Assembly: GCA_964390715.1 (NCBI GenBank)
Contig: CAYMIM010000013.1
Span: 27,311 to 91,310 of the forward strand
Source: Candidatus Woesearchaeota archaeon
Lineage (GTDB): Archaea > Nanobdellota > Nanobdellia > SCGC-AAA011-G17 > UBA489
DNA: 64,000 bases
Direction: 5' to 3'
Below the pieces are notes generated by a model, which saw only the letters and a program-made list of their open reading frames with translations, was not told where the DNA came from and made no database searches. Both the position numbers and the translations under genes were made by a program. Positions 19,372-45,033 of this stretch are shown one piece after another. The stretch's first letter is position 1, and every line of letters starts with the position of its first letter.

Positions 19372-19830
19372 TTAACACGTCATGGTGTCAAAGGAAGTCT
19401 GGATAGTGTCACGATGACTCTTATAAGTGGAAGAAATGCAGGAAAAATCAGCTAAATAAGTATAGCCAGAAGGGCAGCTCAAGATACGCGCGTCTCCCAC
19501 TCGCTCATCAAGAATAGTGTAGTGCGCAGTCACAAATGATTCTAAGACTGTGTAGTCTCCAAGTGCCATGGGATCGCTAGAGCGAAGAGAAGCGAAGAAG
19601 GATTGCGCGGCTTGCAAATAAGTTTGTGTGGAAATAGTCAGGTTGAAGGCGCAAGATTTATCCGCAAAAAAAATTCCAGTTGGTTTTCCAGCGACATTGG
19701 TAGTCATCTGCTCTTCACCCATATCAGGGACATCTAGGGAAAAAGTGTAGTGACGAAGATGAACAGAAGGAGTGCATCCGCTTAAAAAAAGAGTGAAGAA
19801 GAGAATAAGAAAGAAATAATAGTTAGGCAT
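19372..19830 (-). CDS. Putative secreted lipoprotein (lipobox-like LSGC), unknown function
   Basis: MPNYYFFLILFFTLFLSGCTP signal/lipobox-like N-terminus. Confidence 0.45.
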   Translation of the reverse strand: MPNYYFFLILFFTLFLSGCTPSVHLRHYTFSLDVPDMGEEQMTTNVAGKPTGIFFADKSCAFNLTISTQTYLQAAQSFFASLRSSDPMALGDYTVLESFVTAHYTILDERVGDARILSCPSGYTYLADFSCISSTYKSHRDTIQTSFDTMTC

Positions 19831-19837: not shown

Positions 19838-21841
19838 TTAGTCTATTTTTCCACTACCAGTAATGGGGTAGCAACAGTTATTGACGTCGCATCCATATTT
19901 TTCTGGATCTCCACAATCGCTAGGCTGAGAACAGCTTTGCCCGCCAGTTTTACAAATAGGAGGTTTAGGATCTGGCTGACAGGAGCAACCGCTTGGACCA
20001 TTAGGTTTGCAAGTGTAGTTGGGTGAGCAAGCGCCGCCACAAACAAGCCCTGAACAATAAGGCAATGCTCTGCAACCGCTCGGAGTGATTGGTCCTGTTG
20101 TAGATCCTCCTGGGCCCCATCCTGGGAGAGCGGGTGGTAATGGCGGCACTACAGGTGCTGGATCGCCTGGTCCGCCGGGATAAGGTCCAACTGCTCTGCG
20201 AGCACTTCCACTACAAGTACAGTCTGCTAAACAGGTAGTTCCTGCGGGACAATAACCTACAGTACCAGGCTCACATTCTTCGAAAAAATCAACCCGACCA
20301 TTGCCACAGCTACTGCCACCTAAAGGTCGACAGTCACAGAAAGCGGTGCATTCTTTTCCAACAGGACAACCTGAAGGACTTTTTCCAGTATCACATTGCT
20401 CCCATCCTGTAGATGAAATTTTACCATCGCCACAATAATCAGTAAAAGTATAGCAGGTGCATCCTTTAGTGCATACTTTGCCAGTACCACAGCCACTAGA
20501 AAGAATAGGATCACCATTATTCGCGCCATCATCGCAAAATTCTGGACCCTCGATGTTACCATTGCCACAAAATGCGGGAGGAATACTGGGTGATGTGCAT
20601 TGACAAGTGAGATGACTACAGCGTTGTGGTGAAGTGCAAGCTCCAGGAGGAATAACTTGACCGTTTGCATCAAATTCACAATTTTCTGAACCTTCAATAC
20701 GACCATCGCCACAAGTACTGCCGATGCTAGGAGGTTCACAAACACCACCTTTAAGAAGATTACAAATATCGCCTAAATTGCATTCACTGTTTTTAGTGCA
20801 GGGTCTGCAGGCGCCAAAAATAGGGCTAACAATTTCTTTGTCGCAGATTTCATTGCCATAGTTGCATTCATTATTGCCACCACAAGGGCGACATTGTTTA
20901 ATGAGAGTATCACAGATGGGTTTTTTTGGATCTTGCGATTTGCATTCTGCATTGTTAATACAAAGACCAATACCTTCTCTACCACAACGGGAAGGTTGTG
21001 TAGAATCAATACACCATTCAGTAGGGTTGCAATCCTTAACGATCCTACCGTTACTATAATAGGGTGTTTTAGTTCCTGCTGGAGAGTCACAAGGTTCACA
21101 ATAATGAGAGAGTGTATTGCAAACCATGGCGGGATAATTACAATCTTTATTTGTTAGACATGATTTAAAAGGATCACTACACCGTCCGCCTAAGCATATT
21201 TGTCCACTAGTAGTACATTGATTATCTCTGGCGCAAGGAATACAGACACCATTGGCAATATCACAAAGACCCGTAGTTTTCTCGCAGTCTTCATTTTTAC
21301 TGCAGGAGCATTTGCATGCTTGTGGATGCTCGCGGGGGAAGCAGCCTAAAGAAGTTACAGAGCTGCCACAGGCAGATTTATCTTTGCCGTCGCATTGCTC
21401 AAAAGCTTCTCGTTGATTATTGCCACATTCATAAAGCAAAACATTGGTATCATTATTATAGAGTTGGACATAATGTAATCCTTCATTCAAAGGAAGAACA
21501 CCAACAACATCTGCGGGTACGTTCAGTGTCATGTCATTGCCAGCTAATTTGTAGCACAGCATGCCTTTATTACACCATCTTGTTGATCCGCCACTGCTTG
21601 GACCAACTTGTTGTTGAGTAACTCCGCTAGGGACGCGCATGACAACAACACTGGAAGTGCCAGAACCTAAATTATTGACTTGGGTAATCCCGACATTTAA
21701 CGCTTGTAAAGCGTCTTGTAATTCTGCCAAGCGATTGCTGTCAATGCGTTCTGTGGAGAAGAAAAGTAAGGGAATAATGACAACTAAGATAACACAAGTT
21801 AAGATCAAATAATCAAACGTAGATTGTGCTTGCTTCTGCAT
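19838..21841 (-). CDS. Large Cys-rich repeat surface protein with archaeal class III (type IV pilin-like) signal peptide; candidate pilus-associated adhesin
   Basis: Start placed at MQKQAQ/STFDYLILTCVILVVIIPLLFF (Q+1 and D+5, pilin-like, then a hydrophobic helix). About 600 aa of CxxC-rich repeats (CEPCDSP, CRPCGGNNEC, CRPCTKNSEC). Pro/Gly-rich linker GGPGDPAPVVPPLPPALPGWGPGG. The track's longer 686-aa ORF has an unlikely N-terminal extension. Confidence 0.6.
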   Translation of the reverse strand: MQKQAQSTFDYLILTCVILVVIIPLLFFSTERIDSNRLAELQDALQALNVGITQVNNLGSGTSSVVVMRVPSGVTQQQVGPSSGGSTRWCNKGMLCYKLAGNDMTLNVPADVVGVLPLNEGLHYVQLYNNDTNVLLYECGNNQREAFEQCDGKDKSACGSSVTSLGCFPREHPQACKCSCSKNEDCEKTTGLCDIANGVCIPCARDNQCTTSGQICLGGRCSDPFKSCLTNKDCNYPAMVCNTLSHYCEPCDSPAGTKTPYYSNGRIVKDCNPTEWCIDSTQPSRCGREGIGLCINNAECKSQDPKKPICDTLIKQCRPCGGNNECNYGNEICDKEIVSPIFGACRPCTKNSECNLGDICNLLKGGVCEPPSIGSTCGDGRIEGSENCEFDANGQVIPPGACTSPQRCSHLTCQCTSPSIPPAFCGNGNIEGPEFCDDGANNGDPILSSGCGTGKVCTKGCTCYTFTDYCGDGKISSTGWEQCDTGKSPSGCPVGKECTAFCDCRPLGGSSCGNGRVDFFEECEPGTVGYCPAGTTCLADCTCSGSARRAVGPYPGGPGDPAPVVPPLPPALPGWGPGGSTTGPITPSGCRALPYCSGLVCGGACSPNYTCKPNGPSGCSCQPDPKPPICKTGGQSCSQPSDCGDPEKYGCDVNNCCYPITGSGKID

Positions 21842-21924
21842 GATACTCTTTTCCTTAAGGCTTATTTTTTCAGGATGGTATAAATACTTTATGAACAACT
21901 CTCAAGGAATAACAAAAAGAAGCA

Positions 21925-21940
21925 AAGTTTATATACTACT
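21925..21940 (+). promoter_or_regulatory. TATA-like element (GTTTATATACTA) in the divergent intergenic region upstream of pilin gene 1; a second TATA (TATTTATACC, minus strand) serves the Cys-rich gene
   Basis: AT-rich box about 60 to 70 nt upstream of the ATG at 22001. Divergent arrangement with the 19838..21841 gene. Confidence 0.3.
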
Positions 21941-22000
21941 GCAACGTCAAAAATTGTATCCATGTTCAAACAAAGTAAACGAATAAGAGGTGGTAAGAGA

Positions 22001-22486
22001 ATGGTGCAAAAAAGAGGACAAGCGGCCATGGAGTTCTTGATGACTTATGGCTGGGCGTTGTTAGTAGTTTTAATCGCGATTGGCGCTTTAGCGTTCTTCG
22101 GAGTATTGAATCCAAGTAGATTCTTGCCGAACTCCTGTACTTTAGCTCCAGGATTTAGTTGCAATGACTTCAGAGCAAGTGATGGCGATGATAATATCCT
22201 TGTTGTGATTCAAAATGGATTAGGTGACAATCTCAACTCAGTTACTTTAAAGTTATCTGGTAGTAACCCTGATTGTGGCGGTTCATCATCAACAACAGGA
22301 AGAGCATTTACACCAGGATCAACGACACTCAATGATGGTGCATCAACTCAATTTACCATGGCCTGTACTGCAGGTAACTTGGTTAAAGGAAATAAGTTGA
22401 AAGGAGACCTTCAAATTGATTATACTATCGGAACAGGTCTTGCACATAAAAAAATTGGTCAACTAGTTGTTGGAATTGAAGCGTAG
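22001..22486 (+). CDS. Archaeal type IV pilin-like protein (class III signal peptide)
   Basis: MVQKRG/QAAMEFLMTYGWALLVVLIAIGALAFFGVL: basic leader, Q+1, E+5, hydrophobic helix. The track's start at 21962 adds an unlikely 13-aa extension. Confidence 0.7.
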   Translation: MVQKRGQAAMEFLMTYGWALLVVLIAIGALAFFGVLNPSRFLPNSCTLAPGFSCNDFRASDGDDNILVVIQNGLGDNLNSVTLKLSGSNPDCGGSSSTTGRAFTPGSTTLNDGASTQFTMACTAGNLVKGNKLKGDLQIDYTIGTGLAHKKIGQLVVGIEA

Positions 22487-22525
22487 TCCTTCTTTTCTTT
22501 CTTTTTCTTTATTTTAATAAACTAT
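22487..22525 (+). terminator. T-rich tract after pilin gene 1 (archaeal oligo-T terminator candidate)
   Basis: GTCCTTCTTTTCTTTCTTTTTCTTTATTTT immediately after the stop codon. Confidence 0.3.
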
Positions 22526-22554
22526 AAAAAGAGTGTTCTTTATAAAAATTTCAC

Positions 22555-24396
22555 ATGAAAAAGAAAACAGAGATAATCCTTGTTATTCTATTATTGTTGC
22601 TTGCTACAGCATGGAGATTTATTTTTTGGCATAATGGCATTTTTGGTTCAGATGCTCTTTATCACTATAGTGTTGTAGAACAAGCACTTAAAGAAGGAAA
22701 ACTATCTAATGATAACCTATTGTCAGTGTGCTACGAAGGAATAACTACTGGACATCCTCAGGGGTATTATGTTGTGCCTTATTTTCTAGGAAAAATCGTG
22801 GGAGTTGATAATGCATTCATAATAGCTCCGATAATTCTAGGATTAATAACGCTTTTTTGTGCATACTTGCTCATTAAGTCAATATGGAATACTAAAGTTG
22901 CGCTGCTCACGCTTTTTTTTCTCGCGATTTCATTAGGACATATCTCTAAGTCATTTGCTTTTTCATGGAGGGGAGAAAATATAGTCTATCCGTTCATTCT
23001 TTTATCCTTATTCTGGATGCTAAAATCCTTTTCAAAAAAGGAAAAAAGCTCTGCCATCCTTGCTGGAATCATATCTGGTCTTACAGCATGGTTCTGGAAT
23101 GGATACCCCTTAGTGATGATTGTTTTCTTTTGCGCACTTTTTTTCTACATTAGTTGCCAGTACTTCAAAGCAGACATATTGAGGTTTAAAGAAGAGATAA
23201 ATTTAGCAACAATAAGTGTAGGAAGCCAAGCAGTCGTATTAATGTCAATTATCTACCTAACTGAGCAGTCAGGAAAAGCAGTCTTGTTTGGAAAAGAATA
23301 TTATCTTTGGGGTGTACTAATGAGTATACTTGCTCTTTGGGTTTTAAGAATAAGCAAGGTAAAAAAAACGAAAAAACCATTTATTGGTGTTGTAATCATA
23401 GGAGCAGGTATAGTTTTCCTTTTATGGAATAAAATAAGGACAATCGCACAAGGTTTTGGTTCAATAAAGCCAGAAATGCCCATTCTTGAGCTACAACAAA
23501 CATTGCCTCATCAATATTTTTTCGCATTTTACATACTATGCGTCACAAGTATTTTAGGTTTGTATTTTTTCTGTAAAGAATTCAATAATAAAAAAGCAAT
23601 TTTCGCAGGCTTATTAATGCCTAGTCTCTATTTAATAATCACTGCTAGTAGATATATTTATTTTGCGAGCATCCCCATAATCACATTGACAGCTATATTC
23701 TTAAACAATAAAAAAATTATAAGAAAGAAATTTGATATCTTTATTGTAATAACTTTTGCCTTAATGGCTATAATGATGATCTACTCGTTGTATGCGGTAC
23801 CAAGATATTTTTCAGAAAGTTTATTTATTGATACTCAAGAGCCTTATTTGTTTATAAAAGAGAATAGTGAGACGGATGCGTGCGTTGTTGAAATCTCTGG
23901 GCGTGGAGCAACTATTGAGGGATTGTCAAAACGATATTCGTATTTTGAACCAATAGGATTTTCTGAAGAAAGACATAGAAAAGTAGGATCCTTCCTTTTG
24001 GCGAATACTTCTGAGAATACGCTAGGGATCGATAATCTCTACATACTCCTTAATTATCGCGATTTTTCAAAATTAAGAGGGATGGCAAAAGCTGCTGAAA
24101 AGAATAATATTACTTTTTTCAGAATAAATGAAGGCATGAATGAAAAAGTGAATGAAACTAAAGTAAAAGAAGATTCTAATTTCATGAAATATATCTATGT
24201 AAATGAAAAAATGTTCATAAATGAAAGTGGCAAAGGATGTGTATATGTCTATTTAAGTGATTATTTTTATCTAAGTGATGAAATCTGTGAATCAAACATG
24301 TTTAAAATGATTACCAACCAAACTATGAAAAATTTCAAGAATGTTTATTTCAAAGATGGTTATGCTATCTACAAGTACGAAGTTAGTGCTTCTTAA
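22555..24396 (+). CDS. Polytopic GT-C-fold-like membrane glycosyltransferase (ArnT/PMT/oligosaccharyltransferase-like), about 400-aa TM domain plus about 200-aa soluble C-terminal domain
   Basis: More than 10 hydrophobic helices. Early loop FGSDALYHYSV is an acidic D-containing motif reminiscent of GT-C first-loop motifs. No WWDYG motif, so not a canonical AglB. Confidence 0.4.
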   Translation: MKKKTEIILVILLLLLATAWRFIFWHNGIFGSDALYHYSVVEQALKEGKLSNDNLLSVCYEGITTGHPQGYYVVPYFLGKIVGVDNAFIIAPIILGLITLFCAYLLIKSIWNTKVALLTLFFLAISLGHISKSFAFSWRGENIVYPFILLSLFWMLKSFSKKEKSSAILAGIISGLTAWFWNGYPLVMIVFFCALFFYISCQYFKADILRFKEEINLATISVGSQAVVLMSIIYLTEQSGKAVLFGKEYYLWGVLMSILALWVLRISKVKKTKKPFIGVVIIGAGIVFLLWNKIRTIAQGFGSIKPEMPILELQQTLPHQYFFAFYILCVTSILGLYFFCKEFNNKKAIFAGLLMPSLYLIITASRYIYFASIPIITLTAIFLNNKKIIRKKFDIFIVITFALMAIMMIYSLYAVPRYFSESLFIDTQEPYLFIKENSETDACVVEISGRGATIEGLSKRYSYFEPIGFSEERHRKVGSFLLANTSENTLGIDNLYILLNYRDFSKLRGMAKAAEKNNITFFRINEGMNEKVNETKVKEDSNFMKYIYVNEKMFINESGKGCVYVYLSDYFYLSDEICESNMFKMITNQTMKNFKNVYFKDGYAIYKYEVSAS

Positions 24397-25723
24397 AGAA
24401 GATAAGTTTAATGGTTAACAAAAGAATCTTGATATCAAAGAACAAAGACCAGTTCTCAATATAAAAAACATCGTGTTTAATACGTTCATCTAGAGAAGTG
24501 TTACCGTAATAGCCATTGACTTGCGCCCAGCCAGTCATGCCTCCTTTGACAGCATGTCGTTCAAGATAGTGAGGTATTTTATCTTTAAACTGGTTGATAA
24601 AGAAAGGTCGTTCTGGTCTAGGTCCTACAAGAGACATATGCCCTAAAAAGACGTTGAAAAGTTGCGGTAGTTCATCTAAATTAGTTCTTCGTAAAAATCC
24701 GCCAAGAGGAATAATTCTAGAATCATGATTGTCCGCCCACTTTGGACCAGTTTGGTGTTCAGCGTCCGGCATCATAGTACGAAATTTATAAAGAATAAAA
24801 GGCTTAGAATTATAAGAAACTCTTTCCTGTTTGTAGAAAACGAATCCTTTCGAAGTTAATTTGATAAGAAAAGCAATCACAATAAATAAAGGTAAAGAAA
24901 GTAAGATAAAAAATAAAGAAAAAAAGATATCTACTAGCCGTTTCAAAACAGGATTAAATCCTTTCAAGTTTGTTTCTTTAATATGTAAAACTGAAAGAGG
25001 GCCTATTTGCTCAGGAAGTGATCTCTTGGTGACAATATCAACAATACTGGGCACTACCTTATAAGAAATATCATGTCCTCCTTTCTCCATAATATAAAGT
25101 ATCTTGGATTGATCTTCTTTAGGCAAATGCATAATAATTTCATCGACTACATGAGTAGATAAGAGTTGACTTAATTGTTTCAGAGAAGAAGGATTGAGAA
25201 AATGAGCTAATCGATAACCATGTTCTCTGGTAATTTTTTCTTGGAAAAACTTTCTATACATAGGATCACAAATAAGCAAAGCAGTAGTTAAAAGATAGCC
25301 CCGACGGTTAAGATATGATCTCAAAGAGTTCAAAAGAAGTCTTCCAAAGCTAATAAAAAGAAAGCTGAAAATAAAACTTACAGCTATAAAGATCCTTGAA
25401 TAAGAAACTTCACGTTGAAGAAAAGTAAAAGTGACAAAAATAAAGAAAACAAAGAGTGTAGACTTGAAAATAGTATAATATTCCTCAAATATTTTTTCCT
25501 TTTTATACAGATGGAGTAAATTAAAAATAATAATATAGATAACTACAATAAAAACTAAGCTAAAAAGATAAGTAATAAGCGAAGGAATTCCTTTAGTCAC
25601 ATCTAAAATACCAGAATAGAATCTAAACCAGAAAGAAAAGAGATAAGCGGTTGCAATAAAGAAAATATCTATCAATACAGTAAGAAAGATGATAAACGAT
25701 GAATTTTTTTTAAACATGCTCAT
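24383..25723 (-). CDS. Polyprenyl-phosphate sugar phosphotransferase, WbaP/bacterial sugar transferase family (initiating phosphoglycosyltransferase)
   Basis: C-terminal domain KPFILYKFRTM...LDELPQLFNVFLGHMSLVGPRPERPFF...GMTGWAQVNG matches the family signature. N-terminal TM helices. Confidence 0.8.
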   Translation of the reverse strand: MSMFKKNSSFIIFLTVLIDIFFIATAYLFSFWFRFYSGILDVTKGIPSLITYLFSLVFIVVIYIIIFNLLHLYKKEKIFEEYYTIFKSTLFVFFIFVTFTFLQREVSYSRIFIAVSFIFSFLFISFGRLLLNSLRSYLNRRGYLLTTALLICDPMYRKFFQEKITREHGYRLAHFLNPSSLKQLSQLLSTHVVDEIIMHLPKEDQSKILYIMEKGGHDISYKVVPSIVDIVTKRSLPEQIGPLSVLHIKETNLKGFNPVLKRLVDIFFSLFFILLSLPLFIVIAFLIKLTSKGFVFYKQERVSYNSKPFILYKFRTMMPDAEHQTGPKWADNHDSRIIPLGGFLRRTNLDELPQLFNVFLGHMSLVGPRPERPFFINQFKDKIPHYLERHAVKGGMTGWAQVNGYYGNTSLDERIKHDVFYIENWSLFFDIKILLLTIKLIFFKKH

Positions 25724-26487
25724 AGTAATCTAAACCCATATTTCTTATAATAAATAAACATGCTCTTTAGGTGGTAAAAAAAGGTTTTGCTAAAGAGATT
25801 ATAGCTTGCTCGTTGATAAACATGGGTAGCTATAGCGGAAGGATAGTATACTATTCTCCAGCCAGCTTTTTTCGCTCTTTGGCATAAGTCTATATCTTCA
25901 AAATAAAGGAAAAAATGATGATCTAAAAGCCCTATCTGATCAAACGCTGTGCGACGAATAAAAAGAAATGCGCCAATAGACCAATCGACGTCTTGAGTTT
26001 TATCATGATCAATATCCAACATAAGATAATTTCTTACTATTCTAGATCTAGGGAAAAAAGGTTGAATAAAATGTGCTAAAAAAACTGGATATCGTCTACA
26101 AGAAGGCTGTAAAAGATTATTAGGATAGAGGAGTTTGCAAGAAAGAACACCAACAGAGGTCTGCTTCTGCATATAAGTAAACACTTTTTGCAGGGTATCT
26201 TTTTGTACATATACATCAGGGTTTAAAAGTAAAATATAATCTCCTCGAGATTGTCGTATAGCTATATTGCATGCAGAAGAAAAACCAACATTTTTTATAG
26301 TTCTAATCAGAGTAACAGGATAACGTTGAAGAATAGCTAAAGTAGTATCTTTGGAGTTATTATCCACAACAATAATTTCTAGATCTTTGAAAGATTGTTG
26401 TTGAAGAGCCTCAAGACAAGAACCAATATACTTTTCAGAGTTATAAGTAACAATAACAACTGAAATAGTTAGTTTAGGTTTTGGCAT
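25720..26487 (-). CDS. Glycosyltransferase family 2
   Basis: ISVVIVTYNSEKYIGSCLEAL...IIVVDNNSKD...DxD-type region. Confidence 0.7.
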   Translation of the reverse strand: MPKPKLTISVVIVTYNSEKYIGSCLEALQQQSFKDLEIIVVDNNSKDTTLAILQRYPVTLIRTIKNVGFSSACNIAIRQSRGDYILLLNPDVYVQKDTLQKVFTYMQKQTSVGVLSCKLLYPNNLLQPSCRRYPVFLAHFIQPFFPRSRIVRNYLMLDIDHDKTQDVDWSIGAFLFIRRTAFDQIGLLDHHFFLYFEDIDLCQRAKKAGWRIVYYPSAIATHVYQRASYNLFSKTFFYHLKSMFIYYKKYGFRLL

Positions 26488-26490
26488 AGT

Positions 26491-27294
26491 TTAGGAAAGC
26501 TTGTTAGCGGCAAATTTCTTCATCTGTGCTCTAAATCGTTTTGTTATAAAGGGTCGTAACAATAATCTATAACTTTTATACAAAGGATAAAGCAAAATAT
26601 AGGACGGTCTAGTAAAGAGATGTGGATGATTCTTTTTAATTCTAGAATAGAGATAAGCATGCTTCTGAAGAGCGTTATGAATCATAGTTTTGCCATGTTT
26701 TCGATAGAAAAATAAAGGTTCTGGAATGACAAAGGATTGCCAATTGCGCTCTAAAAGAGAGATGTAAAAGTCCCAATCCTCATAGCCATAAATCATGTTC
26801 TGATTATACCCTATAGTTTGGTTATATGCTTTTCTTCTAATAACAGAAGACACAACTGCTGAATTGTAGAAACGCATGCTACTCAAAGTTGCAGTTCCAG
26901 TGACTCCAATCCCCTGTACATCACCAAAATACTGAATATAGGGGTAAACAAAACCAATAGTAGCAGAAGATTCCAAAATGTTGACAGCTTTTTCAATATA
27001 CGTAGAATCTATGCAATCATCAGCATCTAAAGGAAGGAAATATTTTCCACGAGAGCGTCGAATGCCATTGTTTCGTGCTGAAGCTAGTCCTTGATTATCT
27101 TGATGAATCACAGTAATGTTCTTGTGGCGAATACTGCCAAGCACTTTTTTCGTATTTGTGTCAATTGATCCATCATTGACAACAATAATTTCAATAGGCT
27201 TGTAAGTAGAAGATAAAACACTCTGAAGAGTTTCCTGAATATAGTTACCATAATTATAACAAGGAACAATAACACTCACTAAAGGTAAAGTCAT
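26491..27294 (-). CDS. Glycosyltransferase family 2
   Basis: VSVIVPCYNYGNYIQETLQSVLSST...IIVVNDGSID...LDADD. Confidence 0.7.
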   Translation of the reverse strand: MTLPLVSVIVPCYNYGNYIQETLQSVLSSTYKPIEIIVVNDGSIDTNTKKVLGSIRHKNITVIHQDNQGLASARNNGIRRSRGKYFLPLDADDCIDSTYIEKAVNILESSATIGFVYPYIQYFGDVQGIGVTGTATLSSMRFYNSAVVSSVIRRKAYNQTIGYNQNMIYGYEDWDFYISLLERNWQSFVIPEPLFFYRKHGKTMIHNALQKHAYLYSRIKKNHPHLFTRPSYILLYPLYKSYRLLLRPFITKRFRAQMKKFAANKLS

Positions 27295-28328
27295 AATTTC
27301 ATCCTCCGGAAAAGTGCATTAAATCGTTTTTCATAAGTATGATCTCGTAAAGTTCTGGTATAAGCTGCTTTCGCTATAGCTATTCTTTCATCATCATGGT
27401 TAAGATAATAGTTTATTTTTTCTAAAAGATCTGGGATAGTAGTAAAAACAACAATTTCTTTATTAGGAATATAATAATCTTCTAAATTATCAGCAGAATT
27501 AGTTAATAAAAAACTACGAGTTCCTGGAATCTCAAAATTACGACCTTTTATCTGGTCCTGTGACAGAAAGAAAGTTCTGAAGGTATTAAGTATTTCTCTA
27601 GGAGGTTTAATATAAGGCTTATTTCTTTTAAAAAAAAGACGAAGAAAGTTTTTATTGGTTGATACATTAGTTAAATTAAGATTGATTTTGCTTTGAGAAA
27701 AACAATCTAGCATAGCTTCTTGTGTCAATCTACCTTGTGGCCAGCCAGTTCCCCAGCAAGTAATGTCCACGCCTTTATTTTTTAGTGTTTGAATAATCTG
27801 TTTTCGATCTCCATGAGATTGTCCTACAAAAGAAACAGGGTATTTTTTCTTTGCTGAAGAAGGTTTATAAAAAAAATGATTGCATGCCCACTGTGTAGCA
27901 AGTACTTGGTTGTAACCAATGCGATGATAAAGAGGTAAAGCTTGTGAGTAAGTTGTTGATACCCAGTGAAAATCTGGTGCATAATATTGAGAATAAGTAT
28001 AAAAACGCCAATGATCATCCGCAAACCAATTAAAAGTAATTGCACCGCTATGTGCGGTGATATATTGAATAGTAGCGTGTGTAATTTCATCTGTGAATAA
28101 AAAAAAGAAGCAAAGATCAGGTTGTATTTCAGAAACTTTCTTGAGTAATAAAGCATTCATAGCTTCCTTGCCAATTTTATGCATTATTTCATCAAACGGA
28201 AAATAGATAATTTCATGTTTTTTATTATTCATATGAACTAAAGAATGATAAAAATTGTAATGTTCAAAACTGTATCCCCTGCCCATCTTTCCATAATCGT
28301 ATTTCATCGCTATGTAAAGAATTTTCAT
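27291..28328 (-). CDS. Glycosyltransferase, GT-B (GT1/GT4, CgeB-like) C-terminal domain
   Basis: C-terminal NFEIPGTRSFLLTNSADNLEDYY...EIVVF...LLEKINYYLNHDDERIAIAKAAYTRTLRDHTYEKR resembles GT4/CgeB donor-binding domains. Confidence 0.5.
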   Translation of the reverse strand: MKILYIAMKYDYGKMGRGYSFEHYNFYHSLVHMNNKKHEIIYFPFDEIMHKIGKEAMNALLLKKVSEIQPDLCFFFLFTDEITHATIQYITAHSGAITFNWFADDHWRFYTYSQYYAPDFHWVSTTYSQALPLYHRIGYNQVLATQWACNHFFYKPSSAKKKYPVSFVGQSHGDRKQIIQTLKNKGVDITCWGTGWPQGRLTQEAMLDCFSQSKINLNLTNVSTNKNFLRLFFKRNKPYIKPPREILNTFRTFFLSQDQIKGRNFEIPGTRSFLLTNSADNLEDYYIPNKEIVVFTTIPDLLEKINYYLNHDDERIAIAKAAYTRTLRDHTYEKRFNALFRRMKL

Positions 28329-28586
28329 AGGATAATATGTTTAGGCGTCCTTTTTATTTTTATGGGCTGGGCTATTTATAAGGAACGCTAGCCTTTTATA
28401 GACTTATTATAAGTTTATGGGATGCTATCCAGAGTAAAGAATAAAATAATTTCTCAGATAGACAGAGTAAAGCAAAGGCAAACTAACAAAAAAAGATTGG
28501 CCTTCTTTAAAAAAATTAAAAAATATAATAAATAAGAAAAGAAAAGATCTAGCTTTCACAGTTAAAGATGATATTATCCGAATACA

Positions 28587-29285
28587 TCAAATATGGGCTC
28601 GCCAGATAAAGAAAGTATCATGAAGATTTAGTTGAACATTCTTAAAACCAGATTGCAATAAAAGTTCCTTAAAGTAAGTTGGTTGATATTCTCGTATATG
28701 AAAGGGAGAATCGCTGAATTTTTCAAGAGAAGTATTATTGGTTGGTGTACAACCAATAAAAAATCCTTCTTTTTTCAAATGTTTTTTTATGTAATGCAAT
28801 AAAGTAACAAAATTCTGTTCACTAATATGTTCAACAAATTCAGTGCTAGAAATAACATCAAAAAGACCAAAATTATCTGATAAAATGGTAATATTCTTTT
28901 GGTGATAGGTTATTTTTTTGTTGTGAGAAAATCGAAATTCAGCTGGAGATATCTTATCTACAGAAATAACACTCTGGACAGTATTTTGGTTGGCAATCTG
29001 ATGAGTAAGATAGCCGAATCCACAGCCAATATCAAGAACTCTTCCATGAACAAGAGAAAGAATAGGTTGTGAATAAGCTTCAAAATACTCTTTTTCTGCA
29101 TCTGTAGTAGTCGGATCATATCGTTCAGTTGGTGGAATAAAAAAAGCATGGATTCGAATATAAAGAGGAGAAATAACAGGTAGACGAGTCATCTTTTTAG
29201 TAAAAGAAAATAAAAAAGGAAGTTTAACCTTCACATAATTTTTTGTAGAGGAGAAAAGGTTCATAAGTTTTGTTCCTTTAGCCAC
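28587..29285 (-). CDS. Class I SAM-dependent methyltransferase
   Basis: VLDIGCGFGYLT (motif I GxGxG). Confidence 0.65.
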   Translation of the reverse strand: MAKGTKLMNLFSSTKNYVKVKLPFLFSFTKKMTRLPVISPLYIRIHAFFIPPTERYDPTTTDAEKEYFEAYSQPILSLVHGRVLDIGCGFGYLTHQIANQNTVQSVISVDKISPAEFRFSHNKKITYHQKNITILSDNFGLFDVISSTEFVEHISEQNFVTLLHYIKKHLKKEGFFIGCTPTNNTSLEKFSDSPFHIREYQPTYFKELLLQSGFKNVQLNLHDTFFIWRAHI

Positions 29286-29929
29286 ACGTCTAGGATTTCT
29301 TTTTCCTTACCTATTAAAGAAAGGGATAAAATTTCTTTGGCAACAGCTTTTTCATTGATAGGTTTAAAGGATTTCTTAGCTGTCACAAGAATATTATCTA
29401 AAAAGTCTACAGCACTAGGAAGAACTTTATTTGCATGTTTAGAAATTCTGCTTGGAATATATTTGCTAGTATAATTGGTAAATAATTTAACTTGAATATC
29501 TTCAAACCCGAGTTTATCAAGAATATATCTAAATTTTTTTTCTCCCCAATAATCTAAATGAAATGCCCAAGGAGACTCTTGTGAACCAAAAATATGTCGT
29601 GCTATTTTAAATTGTGTTTTGAGGTCTGCTGTAGCAAATTTCTTGACAGTAGTTTCAAAATCTGGAGTTTCAAGCACTAACTTTCCACCAGGTTTTAACC
29701 ATCTACGCCAGCGAAATAAGTGTTTTAAGATCTCTTGTCGTGAAAAATGTTCAAGAAGGTGATGTGTTCGCACTTCATCAACGCTATTGTCTGCATATGC
29801 AAGCTCTCGAATGTCTTTATACACATCGGCTTTTGCCTTCATAACTGTTTGACCTTCTGTAGGGAGATCAATATTGACATAGCCAGCTAAATAACTCTCT
29901 CCACAACCTAAATGTAATTTTACTTCCAT
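29261..29929 (-). CDS. Class I SAM-dependent methyltransferase
   Basis: HLGCGESYLAGYVNIDL (motif I-like), LKPGGKLVLETPD (post-motif II). Confidence 0.55.
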   Translation of the reverse strand: MEVKLHLGCGESYLAGYVNIDLPTEGQTVMKAKADVYKDIRELAYADNSVDEVRTHHLLEHFSRQEILKHLFRWRRWLKPGGKLVLETPDFETTVKKFATADLKTQFKIARHIFGSQESPWAFHLDYWGEKKFRYILDKLGFEDIQVKLFTNYTSKYIPSRISKHANKVLPSAVDFLDNILVTAKKSFKPINEKAVAKEILSLSLIGKEKEILDVWLKEQNL

Positions 29930-30609
29930 GTTTTTATTTCACCTTTTTCCAAATACAAAATTCTATCGCTGAATTTTTTAACAGTAGCAATATCATGACT
30001 TACAAAAAGAATAGTCTTCTGTTGTTTTTTGAAATTTCTAAAGACTTCATAACATTTTTTCTGGAACACTTCATCTCCAACTGCTAAAACTTCATCCACT
30101 AAGAGAATGTCAGCATCAACTTGACTAGCTATCGAAAAGCCAAGACGAGCAACCATGCCTGAACTGAGATTTTTAAGTTTGGTATCAACAAATTTTCTAA
30201 GGTCAGAAAAGGAAATAATAGTGTCATATCGTCTCTCTATCTCTTGATGAGATAAGCCTAGCAAAGAACCATAGAGAAATATATTCTCTTTGACTGTTAA
30301 TTCTCCTTGAAATCCAACTCCTAATTCTAAAAAAGGACTTAAAGTGCCATGAACATGCACATAGCCTTGAGTAGGTTGTAATACTTTAGCAATAATTTTG
30401 AGAAAAGTGCTCTTGCCTGCTCCATTTGGACCAACAATACCAATAAATTCTCCCTTCTTGATGGATAAACTAACATCTTTCAAAGCATAAAAACGTTCAT
30501 AAGAATGGCTGAGATTAAAGAGACCTAGAATATAAGATTTAACCCCATACTTTTTATCGTGAGGAATGTTAAAAATTTTCGTAACATGCTCTAAAGAAAT
30601 AATATTCAT
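29920..30609 (-). CDS. ABC transporter ATP-binding protein, polysaccharide/O-antigen-type exporter (Wzt/KpsT/TagH-like)
   Basis: Walker A GIVGPNGAGKST, signature LSSGM, Walker B ILLVDE. Start overlaps the upstream methyltransferase. Confidence 0.8.
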   Translation of the reverse strand: MNIISLEHVTKIFNIPHDKKYGVKSYILGLFNLSHSYERFYALKDVSLSIKKGEFIGIVGPNGAGKSTFLKIIAKVLQPTQGYVHVHGTLSPFLELGVGFQGELTVKENIFLYGSLLGLSHQEIERRYDTIISFSDLRKFVDTKLKNLSSGMVARLGFSIASQVDADILLVDEVLAVGDEVFQKKCYEVFRNFKKQQKTILFVSHDIATVKKFSDRILYLEKGEIKTWK

Positions 30610-31364
30610 TAGACTAACTCCGCAAAATAGACTGCCATTTTTTTATAGATAAAGAGTCCTATGAAAAAAACTAGTAAAGAATAACCAAGTGATAACACAT
30701 AGAAAGAAAAATTAAAGTGGTTGGAAAGAAGAAGGTCTCTCAGTCCTTCAATAATCAATGCAAACGGATTAAGATACATAAAAGAAAGGAATCGCAGAGG
30801 AATAATATTGACAGGATAGACAATAGGAGTCAGCCAGAAAAATGATTGAAGAAGTATCCTCCAAATATGCTGTACATCTGGAAAGCGAATTGTTAACGCG
30901 CCAACAATATAGGAAATACCCAAAGTAAGTAAAAATAAATTAAAAAGGAAAAAGATCATCAAGAAAGAATGGAAAGAAAAAGTAAAGCCAGTAAAGAAAT
31001 AAAAGATAAAGAATACCAAAAAATTAAGAACCAATCCTAAAAAAGTTGTTATGTTAGATGCAAAAACTATAACTGTTCTGGGAAAATAGATTTTTTTCAT
31101 AATGCTAGATTTAACGGAGAGTGAAGTAATAGCATTTAAGGTAGCTTCATTAAAAAATCCCCAGAGAATAATGCCTAAAAATAAGAATAATGGATAATGT
31201 TCTACCTTGAACTTGACAAAGTAGCTAAAAACAACATATAACACCGTAAAAGTCAATAAAGGATTTAACAAAGACCATAAGTATCCTAGGGCAGATCCCT
31301 GATATTTAAGTTTAAAGTCGGTCCATGCGAAAATCTTTACAAGATTTAAGTAATATCTATCCAT
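30609..31364 (-). CDS. ABC-2 type transporter permease (Wzm/KpsM-like)
   Basis: 6-TM 251-aa protein immediately upstream of, and overlapping, the ATPase gene. Confidence 0.7.
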   Translation of the reverse strand: MDRYYLNLVKIFAWTDFKLKYQGSALGYLWSLLNPLLTFTVLYVVFSYFVKFKVEHYPLFLFLGIILWGFFNEATLNAITSLSVKSSIMKKIYFPRTVIVFASNITTFLGLVLNFLVFFIFYFFTGFTFSFHSFLMIFFLFNLFLLTLGISYIVGALTIRFPDVQHIWRILLQSFFWLTPIVYPVNIIPLRFLSFMYLNPFALIIEGLRDLLLSNHFNFSFYVLSLGYSLLVFFIGLFIYKKMAVYFAELV

Positions 31365-31463
31365 AAAATGGTTTTAAATCTGAAGGTTATATAACTTTTG
31401 TCATTCTCGAGTGGAAGAATATCTTTAAAAAGACAGAATTACTCCTAATCCGAGGTGAAAAGA

Positions 31464-32075
31464 GTGCAAAAAAGAGGACAAGCGGCCATGGAGTTCTTGA
31501 TGACTTATGGTTGGGCGTTGTTAGTAGTCTTAATCGCGATTGGCGCGTTAGCGTTCTTCGGAGTATTGAATCCAAGTAGATTCTTGCCACAACAATGTGT
31601 TCTAGGTCCAGGTCTTGCTTGCGCAGACTTCAAAGTAACATCTGTAGACCAAAAAGTACAAATCACTGTACAAAACGGCTTAGGTGAAGATTTAAAACAA
31701 TTCCAAATCTATGTTGATAATGTAGGCGGTAAGCACAAATGTGGAGGCTATTATGGCTACGTTGCATTTTATGTTAATTCTGCAAGTAGAAGTCCGCCTC
31801 TCCGAGACGGCAGTGCAGAGAAACTAATAAATTTATTTAATGGAAATGGTATTCAATGTGGAGGCGGTGTTAACAATTGTTGTACAGATTTCAAAAAACC
31901 TCCTTTGGGATTATATCCTTATGATCTATGCCCTTCAATAACGTCCTGCTATGCGGGAGAGCCACAATGGAAGGTAGGAGAAAAATTCAGTGAAGATATT
32001 GTAATCACTTATCAAACAGAAGGATCACAAATTCTCCATCAGCGAGTAGGTAGATTGACCACGCAAATTGAATAG
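31464..32075 (+). CDS. Archaeal type IV pilin-like protein, paralog of 22001..22486 with near-identical signal peptide/N-terminal helix; alternative GTG start at 31455
   Basis: (MKR)VQKRG/QAAMEFLMTYGWALLVVLIAIGALAFFGVLNPSRFLP, then a divergent Cys-containing C-terminal domain. TATA-like TCTTTAAAAAG about 30 nt upstream. Confidence 0.7.
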   Translation: MQKRGQAAMEFLMTYGWALLVVLIAIGALAFFGVLNPSRFLPQQCVLGPGLACADFKVTSVDQKVQITVQNGLGEDLKQFQIYVDNVGGKHKCGGYYGYVAFYVNSASRSPPLRDGSAEKLINLFNGNGIQCGGGVNNCCTDFKKPPLGLYPYDLCPSITSCYAGEPQWKVGEKFSEDIVITYQTEGSQILHQRVGRLTTQIE

Positions 32076-32077: not shown

Positions 32078-32440
32078 ATGACTGCTCGTATTTCTATAAG
32101 ACATAAAGAAAAAACCATTTTGAACGCGAAGGTCTATAGTTCTCTCTTGCTGCTCGCCAAAGGTCTTCGTTTCTCCAAGTCTCTTAAAAGAAATCAAGCC
32201 TTACTCCTAGCTTCGTCAAAAGAGAATCTCCAGACCATAGACATGCTCTTCGTCTTCTTTCCCATAGACGCGCTCTGGCTCGACAAGAACAAAAGAGTAG
32301 TCTATATCGCTCGTAACATCAAACCCTTCACATGCGCAGTCACTGCTCCAAAAAAAGCGCGGTATATCTTAGAATGCCAAGCAAATACAACACATGCGAT
32401 AAAGCGTAACGACAAGATCTCCTTCAAGATTCACCAGTAG
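32078..32440 (+). CDS. DUF192-family small protein (COG1430-like)
   Basis: IDMLFVFFPIDALWLDKNKRVVYIARNIKPF...A.YILECQAN pattern resembles DUF192. Confidence 0.4.
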   Translation: MTARISIRHKEKTILNAKVYSSLLLLAKGLRFSKSLKRNQALLLASSKENLQTIDMLFVFFPIDALWLDKNKRVVYIARNIKPFTCAVTAPKKARYILECQANTTHAIKRNDKISFKIHQ

Positions 32441-32450
32441 CTTTAAAAAT

Positions 32451-43331: not shown

Positions 43332-43421
43332 AAAGAAATAGAGAAATCCAACATATAAAAACCCACCGATGAAGAGAAAAGAAATAGAAACAATTTTATA
43401 GAAGAACAAAGTATCAAAAAT

Positions 43422-44919: not shown

Positions 44920-44923
44920 TTTT

Positions 44924-45017: not shown

Positions 45018-45033
45018 TTATACTCAACACAAA

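Follow-up and report, generated by a model that had tools for sequence, protein, structure and literature searches.

Who receives a glycan whose biosynthetic genes lie between two pilin genes? The question is posed by a locus of a Woesearchaeota-like (DPANN) archaeon, analysed here within a 64-kb window (the whole stretch of DNA studied). Two same-strand genes for class-III-signal pilins, pilA (22001–22486) and pilB (31464–32075), bracket a block (22555–31364) encoding a GT-C enzyme, a WbaP/WcaJ-type phosphoglycosyltransferase (PGT), three glycosyltransferases, two SAM methyltransferases and a Wzm/Wzt-like exporter. Pfam and NCBIfam HMM searches agreed with the gene list of the original prediction, which had also correctly marked the block as AT-rich: its GC is 0.30–0.33 across 23–31 kb (about 0.32) versus about 0.41 in the flanks, a deficit of 8–10 points. 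Stretches at 1–4 kb and 7–11 kb of the window are likewise low in GC.

That the flanking genes are pilin-like is supported by their N-terminal motif, an AlphaFold model, a Foldseek match and the machinery linkage of homologs. Longer ORFs open at 21962 and 31455; a Shine-Dalgarno-like GAGGTG precedes 22001 and 31464 by 7–9 nt. Both + strand products show the motif [KR]G/Q..E(+5) followed by a hydrophobic helix. PilA, a major-pilin-like protein of 161 aa whose precursor begins MVQKRG/QAAMEFLMTYGWALLVVLIAIGALAFFGVLNP, has four Cys and a Ser/Thr-rich surface loop, GGSSSTTGRAFTPGSTT. Its AlphaFold2 model (pLDDT 87.9) places a helix at 3–32 (30 residues) before a beta-sandwich, and the best PDB match by Foldseek was 8fk7, an archaeal type IV pilus from Pyrobaculum (E 1.3e-3). 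PilB, a paralog of 203 aa, is identical to PilA over residues 1–40 and has a larger globular domain with eight Cys. Neither protein contains an N-x-S/T sequon. The pilin family numbers 1566 homologs, and there are homologs in other Woesearchaeota that adjoin T2SSE/T2SSF pilus machinery. Orthologs of pilB occupy the same position in the related loci L001, L003, L005, L010 and L012.

The near-identical 5' ends predicted for the two pilin genes were found, and they form the sole long direct repeat in 18–34 kb (182 nt, 86% identity, 9460-nt spacing). Its core, about 22004–22129 and 31464–31589 (+), is identical at 122 of 126 nt and codes for the signal peptide and N-terminal helix, both invariant; a 27-nt core probe had only two sites in the window, both in the pilin genes, against a chance expectation of 0. 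This identity reflects the invariant N-terminus together with recent gene conversion in this genome. TATA-box-like elements, read from the sequence and with presumptive function, lie 5' of pilA, in the spacer between the divergent genes (TTTATATA, 21928–21935, +), and upstream of pilB (TTATATAA, 31387–31394, +). Similar motifs were read between the GT-C start and a T-rich tract (22487–22520, +) that follows the pilA stop and resembles an archaeal oligo-T terminator. Because of this putative terminator, pilA and the GT-C gene may not be co-transcribed.

The first gene of the block (22555–24396, +; 613 aa) encodes an AglB/STT3-type oligosaccharyltransferase without the WWDYG motif, an identity that the original prediction overlooked. 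The protein gives weak STT3 and PMT_2 matches, below the Pfam STT3 gathering threshold. Profile alignment to STT3A/B equates E312 with the Glu of EL5 SEHQP, R366 with the pyrophosphate-binding Arg, and EISGRG with SWWDYG; D33, H37, R139-G140-E141, E312 and R366 are kept. Of these, D33, H37, R139, G140, E312 and R366 are invariant and held in common with the equally long relatives that rank next, in which WWDYG or WWDHG is present. Across the whole subfamily both tryptophans are gone, with EISGRG or similar instead, and WWDxG was absent from ranks 1–28 of an exhaustive profile search. It is through these tryptophans that WWDYG recognises the Ser/Thr at +2 in N-x-S/T sequons. The block ORFs yielded no further candidate for a ligase or oligosaccharyltransferase, and neither the window nor any fetched locus showed a canonical AglB. 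More distant homologs (26–28% identity) occur in glycan or uncharacterised contexts, with no pilins.

The rest of the block, all on the − strand, comprises genes for glycan assembly and export. The PGT, a polyprenyl-phosphate glycosyl-1-phosphate transferase of the initiating type (24383–25723), matches Pfam Bac_transf (3.8e-66) and TIGR03025 (1.2e-120; 403.8 bits, cut-off 295.55). Its gene is convergent with, and overlaps, the GT-C gene in every sequenced locus whose GT-C shares 32% identity or more with that of the window. There follow two GT2 enzymes (25720–26487 and 26491–27294), a Glyco_trans_1_2 enzyme (27291–28328) and a pair of methyltransferases matching Pfam Methyltransf_23/25/11 (28587–29285 and 29261–29929, the latter adjoining the exporter ATPase gene); these five make up a variable cassette. 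The Wzt-like ATPase (29920–30609; 229 aa; ABC_tran) is without a C-terminal carbohydrate-binding domain and is encoded beside a Wzm-like ABC-2 permease (30609–31364; ABC2_membrane). Their best NCBIfam matches, TagH and Wzt/RfbE for the ATPase and Wzm/RfbD and KpsM for the permease, all score under the equivalog cut-offs.

Comparison with related genomes revealed a conserved chromosomal locus. The frame, Cys-rich gene / pilA – GT-C / PGT ... Wzt – Wzm / pilB, stands at the same housekeeping site (FttA/proteasome to DUF192/ABC/RNase J) in six or more related lineages of Woesearchaeota, where GT-C identity falls as far as 36–39%. Wzt and Wzm are 55–70% identical in L001, L003, L005 and L010, and both are absent from the two divergent versions L030 and L031, which means that not every such locus includes the export step. 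Each fully sequenced annotated related locus (L001, L003, L005, L010, L030 and L031) has at least one methyltransferase at the same place; L006 has one, at its contig end. Within the frame, glycosyltransferase and methyltransferase gene sets differ among L001, L003, L005 and L006, the L001 cassette including a WsaF_N-type glycosyltransferase. Such inner variation, as in O-antigen loci, suggests that the displayed glycan is under diversifying selection.

Thirteen distinct loci combine a GT-C of 32% identity or more with available sequence upstream of it. In 12 of them (the window, L001, L003, L005, L006, L010, L017, L018, L022, L024, L026 and L030) pilA lies immediately 5' of the GT-C gene, in L006 despite a different upstream context. 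A single Memo gene intervenes in L031, and the fragments L004, L014 and L016 likewise show the adjacency. The GT-C-linked PilA proteins have no sequons in 13 of 13 cases; composition predicts 0.6–2.0 each (12 shuffled), with a chance of zero of 0.09–0.52 per protein. Pilin homologs beside T2SSE/T2SSF machinery without GT-C have 3–4. Counting against the sequon argument, the pilins of the more distant L027, with no GT-C nearby, also have just 0–1, and the PilB orthologs of L010 and L012 have one each. All GT-C-linked loci come from a single clade in which synteny is extensively conserved, also for housekeeping neighbours, so neither adjacency nor sequon absence is phylogenetically independent among them.

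We propose, giving the idea about an even chance, that the locus encodes a pilin-dedicated, non-sequon glycosylation system coupled to type-IV-pilin-like subunits. The PGT would begin a glycan on polyprenyl phosphate at the cytoplasmic face, the two GT2 enzymes and the GT1-like enzyme would extend it, the methyltransferases would O-methylate it and possibly cap the chain, and the Wzm/Wzt-type exporter would carry the lipid-linked product outward. There the AglB/STT3-fold enzyme would transfer it en bloc to PilA, and possibly to PilB and the Cys-rich pilin-like protein; machinery with genes at other genomic sites would assemble the pilus. Attachment is proposed to be sequon-independent because the subfamily has lost both WWDYG tryptophans and the linked pilins are without sequons; it would most likely be O-linked, in the Ser/Thr-rich surface loop. 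Against an O-linked reading, we know of no STT3-family enzyme that O-glycosylates. The analysis establishes the gene identities, enzyme fold, motif loss, synteny and lack of sequons; the acceptor we infer from two things, adjacency and sequon absence, as we do linkage type, methyl-group role and biological purpose from the locus as a whole. An unusual, WWDYG-less relative of the universal protein-glycosylating enzyme would thereby become a candidate enzyme of a protein glycosylation system that is non-standard and specific to pili.

A possible but rather unlikely alternative is a general cell-surface glycan cluster, its AglB-like enzyme acting on S-layer or other envelope proteins or lipid, with the pilins neighbours by inherited synteny and not substrates. 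Candidate S-layer or surface proteins are indeed encoded in the window (39658–41067 and 41244–43478), pilA has a terminator-like tract of its own, distant GT-C homologs have no pilins nearby, and in the single clade of linked loci unrelated housekeeping neighbours are equally syntenic. Yet pilA–GT-C adjacency persists at 32–37% identity and with altered upstream context in L006 and L018, the WWDYG-less subfamily is the pilin-linked set in every sampled locus, sequons are consistently avoided by the linked pilins, and bacteria have a parallel arrangement in pilA-tfpO and pilA-tfpW. We find it improbable that GT-C is instead the lineage's divergent general AglB, N-glycosylating many proteins (some or none of them pilins) at a relaxed or altered site motif: both tryptophans are lost subfamily-wide while same-length sister proteins retain them, and a general oligosaccharyltransferase is not expected to track a single pilin gene. 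The fold and the catalytic-site residues kept in common with WWDYG-bearing relatives fit that idea, and reduced DPANN genomes may retain one oligosaccharyltransferase; the absence of canonical AglB also fits, but covers about 64 kb of genome, and one may lie elsewhere. Loss of the hallmark motif could also mean a catalytically dead AglB derivative serving as pilin chaperone or assembly accessory, the glycan going to another acceptor via an enzyme encoded elsewhere; non-enzymatic pilin accessory proteins do exist beside pilA in bacteria, e.g. TfpY-like (PMC11841053). We judge this very unlikely given six invariant residues common to WWDYG-bearing relatives, as expected of an active site, and the recurrent convergent overlap with the PGT gene.

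The original prediction had pictured a self-contained system of pilus, tip adhesin and glycan, and had read the low GC as suggesting horizontal acquisition or rapid turnover. A recently acquired island of this kind would explain the GC deficit, the bacterial-type families of the PGT and exporter, the differing inner cassettes, and L027, where two pilin genes are adjacent with no glycan block between. The idea now has little to commend it, being largely refuted by the synteny described above. The GC dip recurs in L001 and L003, where it extends to vertically conserved genes, and more weakly in L005; since related lineages have the same frame, site and dip, the dip is not a sign of recent acquisition. 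The block borders carry no integrase, tRNA or mobile element, and self-containment fails because the 64-kb window lacks an ATPase for pilus assembly, a platform protein and a prepilin peptidase. Turnover stands in part: the inner cassette varies, the PGT differs in one lineage and the block is absent in L027, but the frame is conserved.

The proposed pilin glycosylation system resembles several known ones in part. The oligosaccharyltransferases AglB (archaeal), STT3 (eukaryotic) and PglB (bacterial) serve N-glycosylation, with archaellins, pilins and S-layer proteins among the substrates; the GT-C enzyme has their EL1 Asp (D33), EL5 Glu (E312) and Arg (R366), and its glycan donor is expected to be polyprenyl-(di)phosphate-linked. 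It differs in the missing WWDYG, in an identity of just 15–17%, in its tie to one sequon-free pilin, and in a donor that would come through a bacterial-type Bac_transf PGT and Wzm/Wzt exporter rather than characterised Agl enzymes. Archaeal pilins are known AglB targets, with AglB-dependent glycosylation on five of six adhesion pilins in Haloferax volcanii (PMC6098224). As here, the bacterial pilin-specific oligosaccharyltransferase genes for TfpO/PilO and TfpW of P. aeruginosa and TfpM of Moraxellaceae lie immediately 3' of pilA (PMC9829042; bioRxiv 10.1101/2020.04.19.049825). Those systems attach a lipid-linked polysaccharide-derived glycan, sequon-free, at Ser/Thr, as we propose here, and their glycan variability is tied to phage evasion (bioRxiv 10.1101/150227; PMC9829042; bioRxiv 10.1101/2020.04.19.049825). 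Their enzymes are not STT3-like (TfpO/PglL/TfpM are Wzy_C-type, TfpW a different GT-C) and use O-antigen or D-Araf precursors made elsewhere, whereas the whole pathway here lies between pilin genes, in an archaeon with class III signal pilins.

The set of gene types also resembles the general ABC-transporter-dependent O-polysaccharide pathway and the S-layer glycosylation (slg) cluster of Geobacillus stearothermophilus, in which a structural surface-protein gene sits beside a WbaP-like PGT (WsaP), glycosyltransferases, a methyltransferase, Wzm/Wzt and an O-linking transferase; the WsaF_N-type enzyme of L001 adds to the likeness. The slg cluster is bacterial, its acceptor is an S-layer protein and not a pilin, and its final transferase, WsaB, is of O-antigen-ligase type, not STT3-like. 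Pilin homologs in L028 and L029, found beside one T2SSE, two T2SSF, a KaiC-like ATPase and several class-III-signal minor pilins, resemble archaeal TFF 'system 1' pili, which are Epd-type, have two platform proteins and occur in methanogens and DPANN (bioRxiv 10.64898/2026.04.22.720090); the window's pilin genes, by contrast, are detached from assembly genes and joined to a glycosylation cluster.

Divergent from pilA lies the gene for the predicted 667-aa Cys-rich protein with a pilin-like N-terminus (19838–21841, −; 74 Cys), now confirmed. It begins MQKQAQSTFDYLILT, class-III-like (KQA/QSTFDYL), then a hydrophobic helix. Its N-domain of ~150 aa is conserved (57–67% identical in L001, L003 and L010), and its variable tail combines a Pro-rich linker with two kinds of repeat, six of C-x-[ND]-x-[DE]-C type and four of the form CG[DN]G..E.C[DE]; homologs in L001 and L003 have a PKD-like insert. 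Weak homology (E 7.6e-7) links it to the leading gene of the minor-pilin operon beside T2SSE/T2SSF in L028 and L029. We consider it a candidate pilus-associated adhesin, built like modular type IV pilins (Streptococcus sanguinis PilB, PMC8179133) or PilY1-like adhesins from a pilin-like N-module and a grafted variable extracellular module. Unlike those, it has no sequence or family match (Pfam, NCBIfam), the tail being an array of disulfide-rich repeats that falls into none of the recognised families. Downstream, a small lipobox-type secreted protein (19372–19830, −; 152 aa; N-terminus ...FLSGC), also without a Pfam or NCBIfam match, has homologs at the same position in L001, L003, L010 and L012.

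The locus lies in an archaeal chromosome: database searches matched the window to Woesearchaeota/Nanoarchaeota (DPANN) metagenome-assembled genomes (MAGs), and the nearest homologs of the locus proteins came from 'Candidatus Woesearchaeota' MAGs. Looking up the exact GT-C (see below) and pilin sequences of the window gave no match. Genes for aCPSF1/FttA, a proteasome subunit, split RpoB, RpoA'/A'', EF-2, ribosomal proteins, Mre11/Rad50 and RNase J place it in a housekeeping neighborhood. RpoA'/A'' and EF-2 contain inteins, one each in RpoA'' (51152–53755) and EF-2 (55540–59217), with a LAGLIDADG homing-endonuclease domain; the EF-2 intein contains a GC dip (0.314) at 56–57 kb.

Two candidate pilin genes on the plus strand, pilA (22001–22486) and pilB (31464–32075), bracket a block of glycan genes. 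Nearest pilA on the plus strand is the gene (22555–24396) for a 613-aa multi-pass membrane protein with weak STT3/PMT_2 matches, here termed GT-C. The minus strand encodes a full-length Bac_transf phosphoglycosyltransferase (PGT, 24383–25723), two GT2 glycosyltransferases (25720–26487 and 26491–27294), a Glyco_trans_1_2 protein (27291–28328) and two SAM methyltransferases (28587–29285 and 29261–29929), all by Pfam/NCBIfam, then an ABC ATPase (29920–30609; top NCBIfam matches TagH and Wzt/RfbE) and an ABC-2 permease (30609–31364; top NCBIfam matches Wzm/RfbD and KpsM). The ORFs, gene calls and composition of the original prediction agreed with our ORF, Pfam/NCBIfam and GC results. An ORF-free gap of 258 nt (28329–28586) in the minus-strand operon, between the Glyco_trans_1_2 and first methyltransferase genes, could contain an internal promoter or be a cassette junction.

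The PGT scored above curated cut-offs as a full-length polyprenyl-phosphate glycosylphosphotransferase of WbaP/WcaJ type (TIGR03025, 403.8 bits against 295.55, over residues 17–445; Pfam PF02397, 222.5 bits against 27). The permease and ATPase genes are adjacent (Pfam ABC2_membrane and ABC_tran) and clustered with Bac_transf and the glycosyltransferases, and Pfam gave no Wzx/Wzy-type matches among block ORFs. This layout, a transporter pair with an initiating transferase and glycosyltransferases in the absence of Wzx/Wzy, fits an ABC-transporter-dependent (Wzm/Wzt) glycan pathway. The transporter genes did not reach equivalog level in NCBIfam: the permease scored 61.8 bits against 380 for Wzm/RfbD, and the ATPase 178–181 against 320/538 for TagH and 146 against 400 for Wzt/RfbE.

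GT-C has a multi-pass transmembrane domain and a C-terminal globular domain, as expected of its fold. The window protein fell below curated scores (16.5 bits against a gathering score of 24.5 for Pfam PF02516 STT3; 20.3 against 450 for TIGR04154). Two homologs in its subfamily, P0122 and P0135, scored above the Pfam STT3 threshold, and a profile of 11 homologs aligned to human STT3A/B with E of 1e-9 to 1e-8. In the STT3 profile alignment E312 pairs with the Glu of SEHQP in EL5, and R366 pairs with the MVRLM Arg; with D33 these would supply the catalytic acidic residues and the donor-phosphate Arg. D33, in the motif G-x-D-x-x-[YF]-H-Y, is invariant and common to WWDYG-bearing relatives, and was assigned to EL1 by motif resemblance only.

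The WWDYG motif binds the +2 Ser/Thr of the sequon, and to our knowledge the AglB/STT3/PglB enzymes characterised so far all read N-x-S/T sequons via this motif. In GT-C the segment C-V-V-E-I-S-G-R-G-A aligns on K-V-M-S-W-W-D-Y-G-Y, with E-I-S-G-R-G in the WWDYG place. WWDYG was absent from all 11 close homologs, and a scan of all frames of the window and of the fetched loci found no W[WY]D.G. An exhaustive profile search returned 737 cluster representatives at E ≤ 1e-3 and 74 at E ≤ 1e-30. Ranks 1–28 lacked WWDxG; eight of the next 25, of the same length (615–700 aa), had WWDYG or WWDHG. Joint alignment showed D33, H37, R139, G140, W181, G183, E312 and R366 to be invariant in both groups. Because same-length relatives keep WWDYG/WWDHG and the core residues are common to both groups, the pilin-linked proteins form a derived subfamily of short AglB-like enzymes that kept the catalytic core and lost both tryptophans of WWDYG; the group nearest to the window protein has lost the Asp as well.

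We also considered R139 as a mark of altered chemistry among the pilin-linked proteins. R139-G140-E141 aligns to D-N-E of human STT3, at the position of the second acidic motif (DxD/DxE/DxH), so that Arg stands in for the first Asp of the STT3 D-x-E. We rejected this idea since YRG[DE] also occurs in relatives with WWDYG; R-G-[DE] is thus a clade-wide trait, neither a sign of inactivity nor diagnostic.

We defined class III signals by a short basic N-terminus and a [KR][GA]↓[QAS] cleavage motif (arrow, cleavage position), with position +5 acidic and with a ~20-residue hydrophobic helix. PilA and PilB share KRG↓QAAMEF followed by LMTYGWALLVVLIAIGALAFFGVL, which fits this motif: basic residues precede the cleavage position, which has G/A at –1 and Q at +1; position +5 is acidic, and the hydrophobic helix follows. 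The isolated N-terminus scored below the gathering score of Pfam PF04021 Class_IIIsignal (13.2 bits against 23.7, E 0.088), in the right register, residues 4–27 aligning to profile positions 1–24. No Pfam/NCBIfam family was found for the pilins, for the Cys-rich protein discussed below or for the lipobox protein (19372–19830, minus strand). The PilA family has 1566 homologs, some with the JGI label 'UPF0333'. An AlphaFold2 model of PilA (60 homologs, pLDDT 87.9) has an N-terminal helix of 30 residues (3–32) and then a seven-strand beta-sandwich. A PilA sequence search against PDB gave chance-level matches only. The top Foldseek matches of the model included archaeal type IV pili (8fk7, 8tib), that of Pyrobaculum calidifontis ranking best and the Sulfolobus tri-pilus third, both weak at E ~1e-3.

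The genomic linkage of homologs argues most strongly that these proteins are pilins. At two other database loci (L028 and L029), PilA homologs of 47–50% identity occur as two or three tandem paralogs adjoining a T2SSE ATPase, two T2SSF platform proteins, a KaiC-like ATPase and a divergent class-III-signal minor-pilin operon, a gene set that matches 'system 1' of a classification of archaeal TFF machinery (bioRxiv 10.64898/2026.04.22.720090). No T2SSE ATPase, T2SSF platform protein or prepilin peptidase gene was found in the 64 kb of the window; contrary to the prediction, the locus is therefore not a self-contained system. The number of pilin paralogs varies between genomes, as seen in the closest relative (L010), where a third, PilB-like pilin gene with one sequon (20363–21073 of that locus) follows DUF192.

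We propose as a tentative reading, held at less than even confidence, that this AglB/STT3-derived GT-C protein without WWDYG may be a dedicated sequon-independent, probably O-linking pilin glycosylase, fed by the embedded bacterial-type PGT/ABC-exporter pathway. In the main rival explanation, which we consider less likely, the cluster acts on a different surface acceptor, and inherited synteny is all that ties it to the pilins. Possible alternative acceptors are encoded in the window: a 469-aa protein (39658–41067) with weak choice-of-anchor/PACE S-layer-like matches and a 744-aa Ig/TIG-domain protein (41244–43478). The GT-C gene lies immediately 3' of pilA, on the same strand after a gap of 68 nt, and a T-rich, terminator-like tract follows pilA. 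Among 13 distinct loci with GT-C at least 32% identical and upstream sequence available, a PilA gene is directly upstream in 12, one Memo gene intervening in the other (L031); these loci form one clade, so neither the adjacency nor the sequon counts from them are independent observations. Adjacency holds at L006, where PilA is 62% identical and the upstream context differs, and at L018, where PilA is 37% identical. Distant GT-C homologs (26–28% identity; L007, L019/L020, L023 and L032) have no pilin neighbor.

Sequon counts bear on the same choice between a pilin glycosylase and an enzyme for another acceptor. None of the 13 distinct GT-C-linked PilA proteins contains an N-x-S/T sequon; shuffling of 12 of them gave 0.6–2.0 expected sequons each, with a chance of zero of 0.09–0.52 per protein. 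The L028/L029 pilins beside assembly machinery have 3–4 sequons each. As a caveat, the pilins of a more distant locus with no GT-C nearby (L027) are also poor in sequons, with 0–1. PilA has a variable Ser/Thr-rich loop (residues ~90–107), GGSSSTTGRAFTPGSTT in the window, modelled by AlphaFold2 as an irregular loop. Pilin glycosylation in Haloferax volcanii is AglB-dependent (PMC6098224). The order here, transferase 3' of pilin, is that of the pilA-tfpO/tfpW/tfpM arrangement, but the transferase differs from the Wzy_C/PglL or TfpW families, having no Wzy_C match and an AglB/STT3 fold.

The gene families, the fold, the loss of the motif, the synteny and the lack of sequons are direct results; the pathway for the proposed pilin glycosylation is inferred. 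The PGT would prime polyprenyl phosphate, the carrier probably being made by a cis-prenyltransferase (UPP/dehydrodolichyl-PP synthase family) encoded ~11 kb upstream (10699–11409). The glycosyltransferases would extend the glycan and the methyltransferases would O-methylate it, possibly as a cap. The 229-aa Wzt-like ATPase is a nucleotide-binding domain only, lacking the C-terminal carbohydrate-binding domain that reads methyl/phosphate caps, so capping is only a possibility. Wzm/Wzt would export the lipid-linked glycan, and the AglB-like enzyme would transfer it to a site outside any sequon, probably Ser/Thr, on PilA and perhaps on PilB or the Cys-rich protein. One candidate acceptor site, Q-N-G-[LM]-G, conserved in PilA, PilB and the Cys-rich protein, was rejected as specific evidence, since pilins without a GT-C neighbor (L027–L029) also have it.

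Related loci in several Woesearchaeota lineages were recovered by look-ups and scans anchored on PilA and the GT-C protein, yielding full loci (L001/L002/L012, L003/L011/L016, L005 and L010) and fragments (L004, L006, L014, L017, L018, L022, L024 and L026). They share an order of proteasome, FttA, two small genes, lipobox protein (–), Cys-rich protein (–), pilA (+) and GT-C (+), then PGT, glycosyltransferases, methyltransferase, Wzt and Wzm (–), and finally pilB (+), DUF192, ABC and ABC-2. Identity to the window across loci was 74–92% for flanking housekeeping proteins, 55–70% for Wzt and Wzm, and 36–55% for GT-C. The inner genes vary: L001 has a PGT only 28% identical with a CoA_binding_3 domain, a GT4, a long GT2, a WsaF_N-type glycosyltransferase and one methyltransferase; L003 has GT2, GT2, methyltransferase, GT4, methyltransferase; L005 has a GT4 and an 824-aa methyltransferase-GT2-GT2 fusion; and L006 has GT4, GT2, GT4, methyltransferase. 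Two divergent loci, L030 and L031, keep pilA, (Memo), GT-C, PGT, GT4s and a methyltransferase; both lack Wzm/Wzt, so we dropped the idea that this pair is indispensable to the module. A core of pilA, GT-C, PGT, glycosyltransferases and methyltransferase is conserved. Cassette turnover between conserved ends would resemble that of O-antigen loci. Glycosylation of the P. aeruginosa pilus blocks pilus-specific phages (bioRxiv 10.1101/150227), which suggests that comparable selection by viruses or hosts may act here.

In the more distant L027, two tandem PilA-like genes are followed directly by Memo, DUF192, ABC, RNase J, Mre11 and Rad50, and the glycan block is missing, so that at a deeper node the block was either inserted between tandem pilin paralogs or lost. 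DUF192, a DrrA-like ABC ATPase and an ABC-2 permease (32078–34906) follow pilB in every relative, including the block-less L027, so this trio goes with the pilin genes and not with the glycan cluster. A Memo-family gene (PF01875), absent from the window, recurs beside the pilin/DUF192 genes in the divergent L027, L030 and L031. A small variable spot was noted after FttA: the window has a MazE-like antitoxin and PIN toxin pair (17629–18302) between FttA and a 164-aa gene, L003 and L011 have the 164-aa gene directly after FttA, and L001 has a different 200-aa gene there.

The suggestion that the block is a self-contained, horizontally acquired island proved largely wrong. It occupies the same site in L001/L012, L003/L011, L005 and L010 and is missing only in the more distant L027. 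GC is 0.30–0.33 over 23–31 kb (~0.32) against ~0.41 in the flanks; L001 and L003 show the same dip in their versions of the block, and it covers vertically conserved genes (GT-C, PGT, Wzm/Wzt). The block has thus long had this composition, which is not evidence for recent transfer. Mobility borders were not found: the locus gave no integrase/transposase matches and no att-type repeat, its sole long repeat being the pilin coding 5' end; and no tRNA lies nearby, the only one in the window being at 44923. Cumulative GC skew gave no signal bearing on the locus. Of the variability expected on comparison with relatives, that of the inner glycosyltransferase and methyltransferase genes was borne out, but the frame is conserved at the same site. 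By these sequence comparisons the arrangement is a conserved frame rather than a recent island.

The near-identity of the two pilin 5' ends was confirmed. PilA and PilB begin with an identical 40 residues, (M/V)QKRG↓QAAMEFLMTYGWALLVVLIAIGALAFFGVLNPSRFLP, and the encoding DNA is identical at 122 of 126 nt. This is the only long direct repeat in 18–34 kb (182 nt, 86%, spacing 9460 nt), and a 27-mer from it occurs at just these two sites in the window, with 0 expected by chance. A 33-residue N-terminal core is identical in every PilA and PilB protein examined. Over 120 DNA sites the window pair is identical at 116; within-genome paralogs elsewhere differ at 16–25 (identical at 103 in L003, 104 in L005 and 95 in L010), and orthologs differ to a similar extent. 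Beyond the repeat orthology is clear, pilA being 70% identical to pil1 of L001 and pilB 60% identical to its pil2. Since the window pair is closer than paralogs in other genomes and orthology is clear downstream, the near-identity results from recent gene conversion between old paralogs, on a stretch under extreme protein-level constraint. These comparisons led us to reject the repeat as an island-insertion scar.

The Cys-rich protein (19838–21841, minus strand), transcribed divergently from pilA, has 667 aa with 74 Cys and no known Pfam or NCBIfam domain. Its N-terminus, KQA↓QSTFDYLILTCVILVVIIPLLFF, is class-III-like, with signal KQA↓QSTFDY followed by LILTCVILVVIIPLLFF. The first ~150 residues are 57–67% identical in relatives and the tail varies: the window protein has six C-x-[ND]-x-[DE]-C-type repeats, four CG[DN]G...E.C[DE] repeats and a Pro-rich linker, and the L001 and L003 homologs have a PKD-like insert instead. 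A word-indexed homolog search with the N-domain returned two fragments only. The N-domain has weak but significant similarity (E 7.6e-7) to the first gene of the L028/L029 minor-pilin operon. Given the conserved N-domain, the variable tail and this similarity, we regard it as a modular, pilin-like protein onto which an extracellular module has been grafted, a design comparable in concept to that of PilB from S. sanguinis (PMC8179133); the predicted 'tip adhesin' role is conjecture. L027 encodes a further modular pilin of the group, with a pilin-type N-terminus fused to a Laminin_G_3 domain (652–1872 of that locus, minus strand), and a Laminin_G_3 protein is encoded inside the L029 minor-pilin/assembly operon (5466–6890 of that locus, minus strand).

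Woesearchaeota are DPANN archaea that depend on hosts, and their surface appendages are little understood. Those compared here retain a coupling of pilin genes to a glycan cassette that varies, the type of feature expected to matter in host attachment or virus evasion. If our reading of the locus as a pilin glycosylation system is right, DPANN pili would be decorated with a strain-variable glycan, and no earlier STT3-family enzyme would have had a specificity outside sequons; GT-C would also be the first enzyme put forward for O-glycosylation in archaea. That archaea O-glycosylate proteins has been known since 1976, yet the enzymes responsible have still to be identified (PMC6098224; PMC8241124), which makes the locus a testable candidate. 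It offers a concrete, clonable case for non-canonical protein glycosylation, a subfamily with the catalytic core but not WWDYG, tied to sequon-free pilins; a sequon-independent single-subunit oligosaccharyltransferase would also interest glycoengineering. Pilin glycosylation, pilin-adjacent oligosaccharyltransferase genes, ABC-dependent glycan pathways and AglB are already known kinds. What is new is the combination: a WWDYG-less STT3/AglB enzyme tied to sequon-free archaeal pilins, with a complete bacterial-type donor pathway between two pilin paralogs. Our literature search found no earlier description of Woesearchaeota pilin glycosylation, of WWDYG-less STT3 paralogs or of such a combination.

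Two observations were made elsewhere in the window. The tRNA-Lys(UUU) gene (44923–45018) is 96 nt long, implying an intron; tRNA introns are common in archaea. A low-GC stretch (0.35) at 952–4133, encoding a SMODS-associated NUDIX protein, an APH-like kinase-fold protein and a MazE/PhoU-domain protein, is possibly a defense or signalling module.
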